A DNA stretch of 42,604 nt, taken from contig CAYGIR010000001.1 of the NCBI GenBank assembly GCA_964349985.1, forward strand, positions 1 through 42,604. Direction: 5' to 3'. The position numbers were made by a program, and so were the translations under genes. Positions 35,849 to 40,640 of this stretch are shown here, one piece after another (the stretch's first letter is position 1; the number at the start of each line of letters is the position of its first letter). The DNA is from an uncultured Candidatus Saccharibacteria bacterium (GTDB lineage Bacteria; Patescibacteriota; Saccharimonadia; Saccharimonadales; CAYGIR01). The notes beneath the pieces are model-generated. The model had not been told where the DNA came from and searched no databases. It worked only from the letters and a program-made list of their open reading frames with translations.

Positions 35849-36610
35849 TTAGCTCCTAGATAGTATAGACATCAGTTTATCAAAATTTTGGGGGTGGGCT
35901 ACCAAGAAACTGGGGTTTGTGTAGTCGTAACTATCGCTACCGAAGTTCGCTATCTTTGCACCTGCCTCTTGGTACAACAAAGATCGTGGCGCATAGTCCC
36001 ACGAACTGCCGTTTCCCATAAACGAAATTAAACCGTCTATTTTTCCCGTAAACATCAGTGATAAATCGTGAAATCCACCAAAATTAGCAATGTGTGGTCT
36101 TAACGCAATAATTTTTGCTGTAAATTCCGAATCGGATAAAGCCGATGTTACGTCAATCCAAGACCGATTAAGCGGTCGATAGAAAATTTGGATCTTATCG
36201 CCGTTGCATACAGCACCCTTGCCCCGACGAGCTAAATAAAACTCATCCCTGACAAAAAAATATATTAATGACCAAATAACCTGCCCGTTATCGATTAAAC
36301 ATATTTGTGTCCGGCATGAGGGTATGCCACGGATAAACTGCTCTGTCCCGTCTATTGGATCAACTAGCCAGTATGTTTTGCGACTACCTTCTTGGGCAAA
36401 TTCTTCGCCCTCAATACCAATTCCAGGATCAATAGTGCGCAACAGTTCACGAAGTTGTTGCTCTAGCTGTTTGTCCAAGTGCGTAACAACCGTTCGATCC
36501 GCTTTTGATGTATAGTCCACTTTCCCAAAGAACTGCATGAGTTCCGGACGAGCGGATCGCAGAAAAGCAACTATTCTAGCCTCGGCATCCGTAATAAAAT
36601 CATCGTTCAT
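35849..36610 (-). CDS. Inositol monophosphatase family protein
   Basis: Contains WLVDPIDGTEQFIRGIP and SSWDYAP motifs. Confidence 0.8.
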   Translation of the reverse strand: MNDDFITDAEARIVAFLRSARPELMQFFGKVDYTSKADRTVVTHLDKQLEQQLRELLRTIDPGIGIEGEEFAQEGSRKTYWLVDPIDGTEQFIRGIPSCRTQICLIDNGQVIWSLIYFFVRDEFYLARRGKGAVCNGDKIQIFYRPLNRSWIDVTSALSDSEFTAKIIALRPHIANFGGFHDLSLMFTGKIDGLISFMGNGSSWDYAPRSLLYQEAGAKIANFGSDSYDYTNPSFLVAHPQNFDKLMSILSRS

Positions 36611-38064
36611 AATTGTGGCTTTTCAGACTTTTCTTTTCTAGGAAACAGTGTTCCAGAAGCAGGACGTATAATACCCTCTTTAAATATTTGGTGTATCTTT
36701 TTGGCAGTTTCGGGCATAAAAGGCACTAGCATGTCGGCGATTTCCAGCAAACAGCCAACTTGATATGCCAAAACTTCGCGCAGGTGATCGGCATCCCCCG
36801 TTTTGTTAATAACCCAGGGCTTTTCCTCGTCAATATACTGATTTAGGCCACGAACCTGCTCCCAAACCGCATCAAGTGCTCTATCAAAACGACATTCTCC
36901 CAAAGCATCAAAATACCCTGCTTGATCATGTTCGGGCTCAGGAATCGTACCAATTATTCCATTTTGATACTGTGTAATCATGGCAGCCGTCCGCTGGACC
37001 GCGTTACCAAGTTCATTCCCAAGTTCGTTGTTGTACGCGGCATGCATTCGATCCCAGCCAAACTCTCCATCTTCGTATGATGGAATGTGTCGAAGCAAGA
37101 AATACCGAAATGCATCTGTACCATATTCAGCTATAACCACTGATGGCAAAACCGAATTGCCCAAACTTTTGCTCATTTTGACACCGCCCTCAGCATTAAT
37201 AAATCCATGCACGTAAAGTGTTTTTGCCAGCGGCAAATCCAGAGCCAACAACATTCCTGGCCAAATCGCGGCGTGAAATCTCAAAATGTCTTTACCAATT
37301 ACCTGAACATCTGCCGGCCAATATTTTTTGAAATCTTCGTGTTCAGGATAACCGAGCACCGTTATATAGTTCATTAACGCCTCAAACCAAACGTACATGA
37401 CCTGCGTGGCGTCTCCGGGTACGGCAACACCCCAAGAAATCTTATCCTTTGGACGTGAAATGCTAACATCCTCCAGACCATCCTTGAACACCTGTAATAT
37501 CTCGTTTCTGCGAGTTCTGGGTATGATTCTAAACTCTTCGTTCTCTATAGCCTCCTGAATCTTGGTAGCATACGCGCTCAGCCTAAAGAAATAATTTTCT
37601 TCTTCGATTTTTTCATATTTTCGATTGTGATTTGGACAAATACCATTGTTGGCTTTTACGATGGCATCAGTAAAAAACGCCTCATCACCTGTGCAATACC
37701 AACCGGTATATTTAGCCTTGTATATATCTTTTGCTAAGGCATTCCAAATCAACTGCGCACGCTGTTCGTGACCAGAATCGGTGGTACGGATAAACCTATC
37801 GTTGCTGATATTAAGTGCTTTGGCAAGCTCCCGAAAGTTTTGACTCATTTTATCGGCAAATTCTTTTGGCGTAATACCCGCTTCTTCGGCTTTTTCGGCG
37901 ATTTTGCCACCATGTTCATCGGTGCCGATACTAAAAAGCACGGATTCATTCTGAGCCCTAGCGGCCCGCGCCAAAACATCAGCCATTATAAATTCCAAAG
38001 CGTGTCCCAGATGTGGCTCACCATTTACGTACGGTATCGACGTCGTTACAAAGTAGTTCCCCAT
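36607..38064 (-). CDS. metG: Methionine--tRNA ligase (short form without the C-terminal tRNA-binding domain)
   Basis: HIGH motif PHLGHALE, KMSKS motif KMSKSLGN, and a typical MetRS connective-peptide region and anticodon-binding helices. Confidence 0.95.
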   Translation of the reverse strand: MGNYFVTTSIPYVNGEPHLGHALEFIMADVLARAARAQNESVLFSIGTDEHGGKIAEKAEEAGITPKEFADKMSQNFRELAKALNISNDRFIRTTDSGHEQRAQLIWNALAKDIYKAKYTGWYCTGDEAFFTDAIVKANNGICPNHNRKYEKIEEENYFFRLSAYATKIQEAIENEEFRIIPRTRRNEILQVFKDGLEDVSISRPKDKISWGVAVPGDATQVMYVWFEALMNYITVLGYPEHEDFKKYWPADVQVIGKDILRFHAAIWPGMLLALDLPLAKTLYVHGFINAEGGVKMSKSLGNSVLPSVVIAEYGTDAFRYFLLRHIPSYEDGEFGWDRMHAAYNNELGNELGNAVQRTAAMITQYQNGIIGTIPEPEHDQAGYFDALGECRFDRALDAVWEQVRGLNQYIDEEKPWVINKTGDADHLREVLAYQVGCLLEIADMLVPFMPETAKKIHQIFKEGIIRPASGTLFPRKEKSEKPQL

Positions 38065-38073
38065 TGTCTTAGT

Positions 38074-38979
38074 TTACCCGTTTACAGATTCAAGACCAAA
38101 TGATGCTGATATCAACACCTCGTCGCCTATGCTCAATCCAAACTCGTCAGCCGCTCGACCCTTCTGCTTAACTACCTCCAGAAACCGTTTATCACCATAG
38201 CCTGAGCTACCGATGGTCAGCCCGAATTCACTCGTCGGTACATCTGTCAGGCGTTCATAACAAGTCACTTCTTGATTGTTTATTATTACCTTTTTACCTG
38301 CCTCGAAATCAACATCACCAGACAGCAAAGTTGTCTTAACATTACCAAAACTGTCGACAAACCAAACTTGCGCACCCACATTCTGCGGTCCCACCAATTC
38401 AATTTGCTCGGCAGGAATGAACCTGCCACCAAGTAGCTCGCGGGCCACAAGTGGCAGAAACTCCAAACTCCTAAATTGCGTATTATTAATATTTTCGGCT
38501 TCCCGTGCTGACAATATATCCTCAGCGGTCAAGTGACGAGTTACCTGTGGAACATCCAGCAAGTTTACAATACTTACCATCCCAAGCTTATGCGCTAATG
38601 ACAAGGCTCGCCCTTCGTACGGAGCCAGCACGGTAGCGATATCATAATGAAAATAACAAAATGGGGTGCCGTTTTCCCATTTACTCCGAATATCATCGCC
38701 TCGGGGTGCTACATTTACCAACACGGCTATTGGCGTACTCGGATACGCTACGGGCGTGCTGACAGCGTCAAGCACATCTACGAGTTGTCCCGCCGCCTCA
38801 AGATCAGGATTATCCGGACCCAGACCAATAAATTCAGGCCTAACGCCAAATAAACTTCCAAATCTGAGTTGCTGACGCGTACGAGCGTTCTGATCACCGC
38901 AATCCGTAATAATTACGCCCTGTGAACCTTCCAGCAGCGCAGAGGCTTTAGTCCCTAAGTCTATTGTTTCATGTGTCAT
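38074..38979 (-). CDS. DUF62-like protein (SAM hydroxide adenosyltransferase / SAM-cleaving family)
   Basis: N-terminal VIITDCGDQN (compare TDFG) and C-terminal WFVDSFGNVKTTL (compare vD.FGN..Tn). The size fits. Assignment is by motif only. Confidence 0.5.
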   Translation of the reverse strand: MTHETIDLGTKASALLEGSQGVIITDCGDQNARTRQQLRFGSLFGVRPEFIGLGPDNPDLEAAGQLVDVLDAVSTPVAYPSTPIAVLVNVAPRGDDIRSKWENGTPFCYFHYDIATVLAPYEGRALSLAHKLGMVSIVNLLDVPQVTRHLTAEDILSAREAENINNTQFRSLEFLPLVARELLGGRFIPAEQIELVGPQNVGAQVWFVDSFGNVKTTLLSGDVDFEAGKKVIINNQEVTCYERLTDVPTSEFGLTIGSSGYGDKRFLEVVKQKGRAADEFGLSIGDEVLISASFGLESVNG

Positions 38980-39011
38980 AATTGTTCATTCACTCCTTAA
39001 ATTATATGTAC

Positions 39012-39040
39012 AAAAAAACAAAAACCGGCCCCTGGGCCGG
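39012..39040 (-). terminator. Intrinsic terminator or attenuator in the leader of the DUF62-metG operon
   Basis: The minus strand reads CCGGCC-CAGG-GGCCGG (6-bp GC stem, tetraloop) followed by TTTTTGTTTTTTT. It lies 33 nt upstream of the DUF62 ATG. Confidence 0.75.
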
Positions 39041-39061
39041 TAGATTTGAGATGTACTATTA

Positions 39062-39103
39062 TTAGAATAAAACTGGCCCAGGGCAAAGCATGGACATCAT
39101 CAT
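39062..39103 (-). promoter_or_regulatory. Candidate 13-codon Met-rich leader peptide ORF (MMMSMLCPGPVLF)
   Basis: The minus strand reads ATG ATG ATG TCC ATG CTT TGC CCT GGG CCA GTT TTA TTC TAA. Codons 7-10 contain CCCUGGGCC, the exact complement of GGCCCAGGG in the terminator 5' arm and loop. Confidence 0.4.
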
Positions 39104-39136
39104 TACGGTAAATTCACTACCCTTGATCACACATCG

Positions 39137-39165
39137 ATAGTAAATGAGTACCACCAATCTGTCAA
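39137..39165 (-). promoter_or_regulatory. Strong sigma70-type promoter for the leader and DUF62-metG operon
   Basis: The minus strand reads TTGACA-17 nt-TACTAT. It sits downstream of the small 39205-39366 ORF and ~100 nt upstream of the terminator. Confidence 0.6.
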
Positions 39166-39204
39166 CTTATCATAGAACGAAACTCGTGCATAGATAAAAC
39201 CAGT

Positions 39205-39366
39205 TCACGCACTCGCGAGATGCCACATACTGCAATGCCTGCATTTATACACCCTGAGTTTAGTGCCTCGCTGCCAGTCTACAGTAACGGCCGCCCCTTC
39301 TGCCTGAACTTTTGAATCATAAGTTATTTTATCCGAGCAGGGTAAGGCAGTTGCTTCTGTGGTCAT
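39205..39366 (-). CDS. Small Cys-containing (zinc-ribbon-like) hypothetical protein
   Basis: MTTEATALPCSDKITYDS...LRVYKCRHCSMWHLASA. The start is taken at MTT (39366) to avoid overlap with the trehalase stop. Confidence 0.4.
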   Translation of the reverse strand: MTTEATALPCSDKITYDSKVQAEGAAVTVDWQRGTKLRVYKCRHCSMWHLASA

Positions 39367-39371
39367 ATTAT

Positions 39372-40640
39372 CTACCGTTTTGAATCTATAAATTCTTGGC
39401 AAAAGTATTCAAAAACGGCATTCGTCCAACCAAAACCGGTTTGTGAAGGATATAAGCCCTTGTTGGGGGGCTTGTCTGGAGAAACAACATTATATTTTTC
39501 CAAAAACACACCGTGATTATTGTACCAATCTAGGTTTGTCTTGAGCCATTTCATAGCGATACGCTCCGCGTCTTCTCGATAGCCATAATTAAGCAGACCT
39601 TTGATAATCAAAAAATGCAGTGGTGCCCAACCATTAGGATGTGCCCACTGAGTCGGAGTCATGCCCGGCATAAACTGGCTCAACGGCTGTACGTCCGTTG
39701 CTGCAAGCCCACCACGATTCTCAAACCTACGCAACGCCTTGATCATTTGTGTGGCTTGTCGCTTATCGACCATTCCCGCCCATAAGGGGTAAAATCCAGC
39801 TAGTGAACTTACCGTTCCGCGTTTTTCTTTGGAATAATTATAATCATAATACTGACCACGCAAATTGTTCCACATCAATTCATTGACAGTTGTTTTACGA
39901 TGTTCCGCGGCAACTTCCCATTTGGCGGCTCCTCTCAGATCATTAATATGTCTGTAGAACTTAGCTAAATCAACCTCATACTTATATAGCAACGCATTCA
40001 AGTCAATTGGTACAAAACTCAAGGCCTTGCGGCCAAATCGTGGTGTCATATCCCATCCGCTCTCTGTCTCGGCCAGATCATTCAATAAATTAATATCGTA
40101 ATATCGTGATAAACCCCTATAAACTTGGCGGGCATTTGGCTTAGTCGTACCCATCCAAACCGTGTGGTATTCTGCTTCAGCAACAGCCATATTATTCCTA
40201 AGCCACTTGTCATTCAAATCATAAGTATTGTACAAATCCCAGATAAAGCTCGTCAGAAAGGGTGGCTGAGAACGTCCCGTTAAATAGGTGCGTGACGCGT
40301 TCGGTATGACATTCAAGCGTCTGTACAGAGCGGTCAGATTTTCTAAAATACCAAGCACTAAATCTTTGTGCTGTTCATCGAGCAAACCTTGCGCAATGAA
40401 ATAACTATCCCAATAATACAGCTCATTGAAATCAAACTCATGCCCCTCCTCATAGGCGGGCACCAAATAGGGTTTAGGTAGCCCCAACAAACTCTCGTCA
40501 TCTTTGGGGTGAAATCGCTTTAATTTATCCCAATATTTGGCGATATACTCCCTAGCAGGTGCGACATCTTGAGCACTCAAACTAACCCTGCCGGGCCAAA
40601 ATCTATTAGCAAAATCTCTTGTTGTTTGTAGCATACTCAT
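39372..40640 (-). CDS. Alpha,alpha-trehalase (glycoside hydrolase family 37-like)
   Basis: Contains YYWDSYF, RSQPPFL, ESGWDMTPRF, WAHPNGWAPLHF and GFGWTNAVF signatures. Confidence 0.85.
   Translation of the reverse strand: MSMLQTTRDFANRFWPGRVSLSAQDVAPAREYIAKYWDKLKRFHPKDDESLLGLPKPYLVPAYEEGHEFDFNELYYWDSYFIAQGLLDEQHKDLVLGILENLTALYRRLNVIPNASRTYLTGRSQPPFLTSFIWDLYNTYDLNDKWLRNNMAVAEAEYHTVWMGTTKPNARQVYRGLSRYYDINLLNDLAETESGWDMTPRFGRKALSFVPIDLNALLYKYEVDLAKFYRHINDLRGAAKWEVAAEHRKTTVNELMWNNLRGQYYDYNYSKEKRGTVSSLAGFYPLWAGMVDKRQATQMIKALRRFENRGGLAATDVQPLSQFMPGMTPTQWAHPNGWAPLHFLIIKGLLNYGYREDAERIAMKWLKTNLDWYNNHGVFLEKYNVVSPDKPPNKGLYPSQTGFGWTNAVFEYFCQEFIDSKR

Follow-up and report, generated by a model that had tools for sequence, protein, structure and literature searches.

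In positions 1 to 42,604 of contig CAYGIR010000001.1 of an uncultured Candidatus Saccharibacteria bacterium, referred to here as the window, a short transcription unit lies on the minus strand directly upstream of a probable operon for a divergent DUF62-like protein, methionyl-tRNA synthetase (metG) and a member of the inositol monophosphatase family (IMPase). The unit comprises a promoter, a short open reading frame (ORF) containing a run of methionine (Met) codons, and an intrinsic terminator, and we consider it very probable from its sequence that it is a ribosome-mediated (leader-peptide) transcription attenuator sensing the supply of charged elongator tRNA-Met. The entire evidence base is computational, and coordinates are those of the window. 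The leader and operon features are as follows.

39160 to 39165, minus strand: -35 box TTGACA; most relatives have a TTGnnn -35 at the equivalent site
39137 to 39142, minus strand: -10 box TACTAT, after a 17-nt spacer; a 10/12 promoter match; in relatives the leader start codon follows the -10 box after 6-8 nt, in a few after 9
39128 to 39130, minus strand: GTG with which the leader ORF probably starts, sharing the frame of the Met run and lying 6 nt past the -10 box
39062 to 39130, minus strand: leader ORF of 22 codons plus stop, (M)IKGSEFTVMMMSMLCPGPVLF, the frame being open upstream of the ATG run
39095 to 39103, minus strand: three consecutive Met codons (codons 10-12), ATGATGATG, the proposed sensing site
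39091 to 39089, minus strand: fourth Met codon (codon 14)
39091 to 39095, minus strand: region 1 (GUCCA), a possible strand of an anti-antiterminator or pause hairpin, able to pair with UGGGC (39080-39076) in region 2
39075 to 39083, minus strand: region 2 (CCCUGGGCC), candidate antiterminator 5' strand, lying within the leader ORF, with its end 10 nt short of the stop codon
39062 to 39064, minus strand: leader stop codon TAA; a ribosome positioned here would mask region 2
39030 to 39038, minus strand: region 3 (GGCCCAGGG), made up of terminator 5' arm and loop and complementary to region 2
39012 to 39041, minus strand: intrinsic terminator with U-tract, UUUUUGUUUUUUU; stem ACCGGCC/GGCCGGU, loop CAGG
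38992 to 38997, minus strand: Shine-Dalgarno (SD) sequence AAGGAG of the DUF62-like gene
38074 to 38979, minus strand: first gene, encoding a divergent DUF62 / S-adenosylmethionine (SAM) hydroxide adenosyltransferase (SAM hydrolase)-like protein of 301 aa; Pfam SAM_HAT_C
36607 to 38064, minus strand: second gene, metG (methionyl-tRNA synthetase, 485 aa), starting 9 nt after the DUF62-like stop codon
35849 to 36610, minus strand: third gene of the probable operon, IMPase, with a 4-nt overlap with the metG stop

An earlier, sequence-only reading of this locus had described the promoter, the GC hairpin with its U-run, and the AAGGAG preceding the DUF62-like ATG (38979), and all three were found where it had placed them. 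TTGACA-17-TACTAT (39165-39137) was the sole 10/12 promoter match between 38000 and 40000. The hairpin ACCGGCC-CAGG-GGCCGGT (39041-39024) has seven pairs, six of them GC, and is followed by TTTTTGTTTTTTT to 39012; from the U-tract to the DUF62-like ATG the distance is only 32 nt. The ATG run ATGATGATG occurs once in the 42.6-kb window and is followed by the codons TCC ATG CTT TGC CCT GGG CCA GTT TTA TTC TAA, giving the predicted leader peptide (M/V)IKGSEFTV-MMM-S-M-LCPGPVLF with Met at codons 10-12 and 14. As that reading had also stated, CCCTGGGCC (39083-39075), inside the ORF, is the exact reverse complement, over 9 nt, of GGCCCAGGG (39038-39030); when complementarity was scored by run length, a run of 8 nt was obtained in none of 200 shuffles of the window leader segment.

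Conservation of the leader and its alternative pairings

The sequence-only reading had proposed comparing this region in related genomes. We collected 90 loci encoding DUF62-like homologues from genome and metagenome contigs, together with 10 from close relatives, and counted as a Met run any stretch of five in-frame codons, within 300 nt upstream of the gene, that includes three or more ATG codons. Such runs were present in 47 of the 86 homologous loci that had enough upstream sequence, and a few further loci had just two adjacent Met codons; the background in the remainder of the same loci was 0.016 Met runs per 300 nt. By their record titles, the hosts included Saccharimonadia, Kaiser-, Taylor- and Nomurabacteria and Paceibacterota. 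A composite signature, consisting of a Met run, a stop codon within 30 codons and a terminator within 150 nt, occurred 56 times in about 1 Mb of collected sequence, and 54-55 of these occurrences were in front of DUF62-like genes. The Met run, the position of the stop codon, the antiterminator segment and the terminator recur in dozens of Patescibacteria upstream of the homologues, in a unit that is co-oriented with the DUF62-like gene and immediately upstream of it.

Two observations made in this collection concern individual loci. At about position 2134 of locus L063, a Met leader (MMMEMMT...) with its terminator lies about 370 nt upstream of the DUF62-like gene, where 60-80 nt is usual; the same peptide class is found in L061. 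Six metagenome-assembled genomes (MAGs) labelled 'uncultured Gammaproteobacteria' (L016, L017, L020, L022, L038 and L039) carry the DUF62-like gene, four of them with a Met run upstream; since their gene content resembles that of Patescibacteria, these labels are probably wrong.

The relationship between the ORF interior and the terminator was assayed in 35 unique leaders having both a Met run and a terminator, by finding in each the stretch that, without gaps, best complements the terminator 5' arm and loop. In 34 of the 35 the complementary segment began 18-34 nt downstream of where the Met run starts, and it ended 3-17 nt before the stop codon (22 nt in one leader) or, in the shortest ORFs, a few nt past it. 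The segment tracked the terminator class, for example GCGGAG with CTCCGC, CCTGGGCC with GGCCCAGG, CTAGGCCG with CGGCCTAG, GCGAAGGC with GCCTTCGC, and CGGAGGCCT with AGGCCTCCG. When partners were swapped, the mean complementarity was 6.9 nt to a leader's own terminator versus 4.05 nt to those of other classes, and complementarity to its own terminator exceeded the cross-class mean in every one of the 35 leaders. A single MAFFT alignment of 33 diverse leaders was dropped because the antiterminator register differs between terminator classes, so that a single-consensus structure cannot be counted; the alignment-free swapped-partner test and an alignment restricted to the window's own clade (A4, 12 sequences) were used instead. 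In A4 the 11-bp antiterminator was paired in 96.2% of cells and the terminator in 96.4%. Two antiterminator pairs covaried, columns 63-112 (AU in five sequences, GC in five, CG in one and GU in one) and columns 67-108 (CG in six, UG in five and UA in one), and the antiterminator covariation score was reached by 1 of 500 shuffles. As column 112 is a position in the terminator loop, this covariation is specific to the alternative pairing and is not explained by the terminator itself. Computation thus establishes the parts of the element, their conservation, their geometry and the covariation of the alternative pairing.

A third pairing, between regions 1 and 2 (GUCCA/UGGGC), was present in the minimum free energy fold of the window leader. 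In the clade, GYCCA directly follows the third AUG and together with UGGGC was paired in 90% of cells, with one covarying pair (CG in six sequences, GC in one and UA in one) involving the third base of a Pro/Ser codon; 18 of 500 shuffles reached its score, and we keep this hairpin as a possible feature at the level of the clade. For the other Saccharimonadia subgroup RNAalifold gave a different, long-range helix, GACAUG/CGUGUC, within which the Met run and region 2 lie. Following the region 1:2 hairpin in the window's clade is a U-rich stretch, GUUUU, made up of Val/Leu codons (39065-39075, minus strand, in the window; columns 67-73 of A4); speculatively, this is a pause-hairpin-like layout that could synchronise transcription with translation.

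To represent the ribosome, positions in the window leader and in 33 family leaders were masked during ViennaRNA folding. With a ribosome stalled on the AUG run, the window leader formed the antiterminator, with 10 nt paired and no terminator pairs; in the family 17 leaders formed the antiterminator and 14 the terminator. With the ribosome at the stop codon, the terminator formed in the window, with 7 of 7 pairs, and in 28 of the 33 family leaders. Nascent RNA extending to the terminator loop and bearing no ribosome folded into the antiterminator in the window and in 26 of the 33. The stability of the whole-leader fold (z = -1.14) was uninformative.

A probable leaderless start for the leader ORF

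In the sequence-only reading the ORF ran from 39103 to 39062, beginning with the ATG run itself. Its Met codons and TAA stop stand, but its start most likely does not; the frame is open upstream and contains an in-frame GTG at 39130. The position of this GTG relative to the promoter is repeated in the relatives. When the 35 unique leaders were searched, ignoring frame, for the best-matching sigma-70-type promoter ahead of the Met run, an ATG or GTG lay 4-9 nt (mostly 6-8) past the -10 box in 31 of them. Thirty of 32 promoter-adjacent start codons were in frame with the Met run, when one third would be expected by chance, and in 29 leaders the frame was both in phase and free of stops up to the run; the in-frame starts lend indirect support to translation of the leader ORF. 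The Met run begins mostly 7-12 codons into the ORF so defined, with nine codons preceding it in the window, counted from the GTG, and 8-10 in most relatives. In E. coli trpL, hisL and leuL the regulatory codons are similarly 7-12 codons in.

We also considered an SD-driven start at the ATG run, which was rejected, since an SD-like motif was found nearby in only 1 of the 33 leaders with a promoter-linked start, the window leader having none, and a leaderless start explains this pattern. Most likely, therefore, the ORF starts at GTG 39130 on a leaderless mRNA, transcription beginning at about 39130 as judged from promoter geometry. The sequence-only reading had counted the missing SD as its weak point; with the GTG at the predicted 5' end of the transcript, 6 nt past the -10 box, lack of an SD is to be expected and is no weakness.

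The proposed mechanism, its rivals and the target operon

From these features we infer, beyond the site of initiation, that the leader is translated and that it responds to Met. We propose that transcription begins at about 39130 from TTGACA-17-TACTAT and that the GUG-initial transcript is translated as a leaderless 22-codon ORF with AUG at codons 10-12 and 14. With Met-tRNA in good supply, the ribosome would reach the UAA (39064-39062) and mask region 2 (CCCUGGGCC, 39083-39075); with region 2 masked, the terminator (39041-39012) would fold and a transcript of about 115 nt would be released. When Met-tRNA is scarce, the ribosome would halt on the AUG run, covering region 1 and leaving region 2 exposed; the free region 2 would capture the terminator 5' arm and loop (GGCCCAGGG, 39038-39030) once they were made, the terminator would be blocked, and RNA polymerase would read through to the DUF62-like gene, metG and the IMPase gene. 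From SAM and water, those DUF62 enzymes that have been characterised yield adenosine and L-methionine, and the operon would therefore raise both the supply of Met and the capacity for charging tRNA-Met. A Met-codon, ribosome-mediated terminator/antiterminator switch was what the sequence-only reading had suggested, and the recurrence of the unit in relatives, the covariation and the results with Rfam given below all favour it.

Several results weigh against this interpretation. The Met run is absent from about 40% of homologous loci. The equilibrium model of the stalled state still prefers the terminator in 14 of 33 leaders; with so mixed an equilibrium result, kinetics must contribute. The region 1:2 anti-antiterminator is short (5 bp), has modest clade-level support and, family-wide, pairs no better than shuffles. 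The window leader starts with GTG, nearly all relatives with ATG. Leaderless-type promoters were found on essentially none of the long genes of the window, from which it follows that the geometry is specific to the leader, and also that leaderless translation is without independent support here. The SAM-hydrolase activity of the divergent DUF62-like protein is a prediction for a protein with 12-19% identity to solved structures. Finally, Met limitation should also impair initiation with formylmethionyl-tRNA, which complicates the simple model.

This last difficulty would disappear if the window leader were the first example of a family, spread across Patescibacteria, of leaderless Met-codon attenuators whose default state is ON, a broader proposal that we put forward tentatively and judge to be somewhat less than evenly probable. 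The antiterminator would then form in nascent RNA unless a ribosome gets to the stop codon, as the folding predicted for 26 of 33 leaders, including that of the window, and failure of initiation in severe Met starvation would likewise induce the operon. Since failed initiation would also be inducing, it would no longer be paradoxical for translation to serve as the sensor of the initiator amino acid.

The same ORF might instead encode a ligand-sensing arrest peptide of the TnaC/SpeFL type, in which a nascent MMM(P/S)M peptide stalls the ribosome at high free methionine or SAM, so that substrate excess induces a SAM-degrading enzyme. Substrate induction by way of arrest peptides is established for tnaCAB and speFL, which provides a precedent, and the first regulated gene looks like that of a catabolic SAM-cleaving enzyme. 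The peptides themselves bear on this possibility. Typical members of the family are MNKLTNAVVDMMMPLVTQRSFSLS, MVTYNPQAMDMMMPPGPSRSLSSVS, MHPHLRAVMMMEMMTLRAEDYFV and MTFGRNSNMMMEMMT, and those of the window's own clade include MSRISEVVKMMMPMLCPGLVSL, MTKSVEVFVMMMPMLRPGLVPC and MITLATTGRMMMPMPMLRPRPTS. Within Saccharimonadia the motif (D/T)MMMP is well kept; Patescibacteria-wide, however, the Met run is the sole feature in common and the residues flanking it vary freely (MMMEMMT, MMMAKLL, MMMEHD, MMMATD, MMMSLL), whereas the known arrest peptides require specific conserved residues. As co-transcription with metG, moreover, suits a shortage of charging better than an excess of substrate, we regard an arrest peptide as quite unlikely.

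We think it very unlikely that the promoter, short ORF and terminator form an independent gene for a stand-alone micropeptide or small RNA, the DUF62-metG operon then having a promoter of its own. The unit does have its own strong promoter and strong terminator, and a perfect TATAAT hexamer (39006-39001, minus strand), which is without a good -35 box, lies between the terminator U-tract and the SD; but a transcript started from this hexamer would begin within the SD, and the hexamer is not kept in relatives. The unit, moreover, always adjoins a co-oriented DUF62-like gene immediately downstream, the peptide is not conserved beyond its Met run, and the covarying complementarity between ORF interior and terminator would be left without a role.

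The Rfam scan that the sequence-only reading had proposed revealed no known riboswitch or T-box. With Rfam 15 no family, including T-box and the SAM and SAM-SAH riboswitches, was matched at gathering score in the whole window or at E <= 10 in 38900-39420; the sub-threshold matches STnc450, rnk_pseudo, SNORA20 and isrC were rejected because they align to the terminator hairpin alone. The T-box model, with its Stem I and specifier loop and a conserved T-box sequence in the antiterminator bulge, gave no match to the leader, which is only about 115 nt long. Other phyla commonly use SAM riboswitches or Met T-boxes for Met/SAM genes (PMC1262725, PMC2965389), and a translation-independent switch (riboswitch, T-box-like element or protein-binding leader), in which AUGAUGAUG would be a recognition motif rather than codons, could use the terminator/antiterminator pair just as well for its expression platform, but we consider this highly improbable given that Rfam yielded only these terminator look-alikes, that the leader fold is not unusually stable, that the in-frame promoter-defined starts and a stop position fixed relative to region 2 are features of translation, and that a spacing of only about 12-25 nt between Met run and antiterminator, together with an upstream 25-30 nt not conserved in sequence, could not accommodate an aptamer or T-box Stem I.

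Returning to the attenuator that we favour, its proposed targets begin with the DUF62-like gene. The AlphaFold2 model of the encoded protein (predicted local distance difference test score, pLDDT, 90.5; predicted template modelling score, pTM, 0.89) matched full-length SAM hydrolases, fluorinases and chlorinases in their two-domain fold. The best 22 Foldseek matches in the PDB were all SAM hydrolases, DUF62 proteins, fluorinases or chlorinases (E 8e-12 to 3e-7), and profile matches were to 2zbu and 2cw5. Identity to solved members was 12-19%, and of the Pfam domains of the superfamily only the C-terminal one was detected by sequence in the window protein, the N-terminal one going undetected. 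The protein appears to belong to a distinct Patescibacteria subfamily within the superfamily. Invariant motifs specific to the clade are TDCGD..., NVAPRGD and WxNGTPFCY. A 2025 preprint argues that archaeal DUF62 members clear (R)-SAM (bioRxiv 10.1101/2025.08.29.672840).

The sequence-only reading had named both metG and the SAM-cleaving-like gene as targets; the latter holds throughout the family, whereas metG as a general target does not. The DUF62-like-metG gene order of the window was found also in L001, L004, L009, L011, L037, L040, L045, L092, L093, L095 and others, so that many Saccharimonadia-type loci, but no others, have metG after the DUF62-like gene. A second conserved target was sought in the loci without metG and rejected, since the next genes, for which no Pfam scan was made, were heterogeneous. 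As metG follows the DUF62-like gene only in Saccharimonadia-type loci, the conserved regulated gene, judged from gene order, is the DUF62-like gene, with metG a passenger in some lineages, the window's included. The window metG is of a short, 485-aa form whose anticodon-binding domain match is sub-threshold (23.7 bits against a cut-off of 25.1 bits). The 4-nt overlap of the metG stop with the IMPase start suggests translational coupling within the putatively attenuated operon.

Upstream of the leader lie a DEAD-box helicase gene, a trehalase gene and a small Cys-rich ORF of 65 codons (39205-39402, minus strand; probable ATG at 39366), the last situated between the trehalase gene and the leader promoter. 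Its C-terminus reads ...KLRVYKCRHCSMWHLASA; L093 has a homologous end, ...KVYKCRYCELWHLASAE, ahead of its leader promoter, and at this position L092 and L100 also have small ORFs. The Cys-rich ORF had no Pfam match and may encode a conserved zinc-ribbon-like micro-protein. Matches to its proteins assign the window to Saccharibacteria / Saccharimonadales. There are no tRNA genes anywhere in the window. Directly upstream of their leader promoters, L092 (1650-1726) and L100 (720-796) carry a gene for tRNA-Val (CAC), which, being for Val, was set aside as irrelevant.

Relation to known leaders and meaning for Patescibacteria

Like the attenuators of E. coli pheST (with pheM) and of trp, his, leu, thr, ilv and pheA, the element has a short ORF enriched in the cognate codon; as in the classical cases, its antiterminator and terminator hairpins are mutually exclusive and its regulatory codons lie about 10 codons into the ORF, and as with pheST an aminoacyl-tRNA synthetase operon would be targeted. 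Where pheST and the others use codons for Phe, Trp, His, Leu or Thr, this element uses those for Met. It differs from the classical attenuators also in an ORF predicted to be leaderless, without an SD, in a region 1:2 hairpin that most members have only in weak form or not at all, in a SAM-cleaving-like enzyme as first target, and in having a Patescibacterium as host.

Leaderless leaders have been described in actinobacteria. Polycysteine small ORFs serve as leaderless attenuators in mycobacteria (bioRxiv 10.1101/834739), and leuL, trpL, alaL and thrL stand upstream of leuS, trpS, alaS and thrS in Streptomyces (PMC8079986, PMC1262725). The element resembles these in having an ORF at the transcript 5' end, beginning with AUG or GUG, a run of regulatory codons, and operonic targets that include aminoacyl-tRNA synthetases; it differs from them in amino acid, phylum and target genes. 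A recognisable intrinsic terminator is lacking in several of the actinobacterial cases (PMC1262725, PMC8079986), in contrast to the strong terminator and covarying antiterminator found here.

For Met leader peptides our literature search found just two predictions, unrelated and unverified: C. jejuni MetL before metBA (PMC3847290) and a doubtful S. lividans metL before metNIQ (PMC8079986). The sequence-only reading had expected a Met-codon attenuator for metG to be unusual; with these two predictions, a Met leader peptide has some precedent. Both are Met-codon short ORFs before methionine-related genes for which attenuation was proposed. As reported, each comes from one narrow lineage, either C. 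jejuni/coli/doylei or a single Streptomyces strain; the S. lividans metL has few, scattered Met codons (MSTTSDRTPATEATTTPGARCMCRRMCAF) and no typical intrinsic terminator, and no comparative covariation test was found for either in the text consulted. The family described here differs from them in being phylum-wide and in its consecutive AUGs, its covariation and its target genes. Met T-box leaders and SAM riboswitches (S-box and others) also control Met/SAM metabolism, transport or metG through a choice between terminator and antiterminator, but they sense uncharged tRNA or SAM directly by means of large structured RNAs, whereas this element is built around an ORF that we take to be translated. 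The principle is that of textbook ribosome-mediated attenuation; what is new is in practice the Met specificity, the target enzyme and the phylum. What sets it further apart is the combination of a leaderless architecture with a canonical covarying terminator switch, and the leader has no homology to curated families, sharing no sequence similarity with any Rfam leader family.

To our knowledge, almost nothing is known of gene regulation in Patescibacteria, also called the candidate phyla radiation (CPR), and our searches of the literature found nothing on leader peptides or riboswitches native to them. Reduced, epibiont Patescibacteria are thought to be unable to make methionine. A conserved, sequence-definable attenuator would offer a first handle on amino-acid sensing in this group, and its signature of Met run, terminator and complement could be used to annotate leaders in MAGs that are now unannotated or recorded as hypothetical mini-ORFs. 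It would extend leader-peptide attenuation to methionine and would give the widespread, divergent DUF62-like enzyme a testable physiological role, the release of Met and adenosine from SAM when Met-tRNA is short. If the more tentative proposal of a default-ON family is true, the DUF62-like enzyme would be marked as a salvage enzyme induced by Met starvation, returning methionine and adenosine from SAM, and the leader would be, as far as our literature searches show, the first cis-regulatory nutrient sensor defined in these host-dependent, biosynthesis-poor bacteria.

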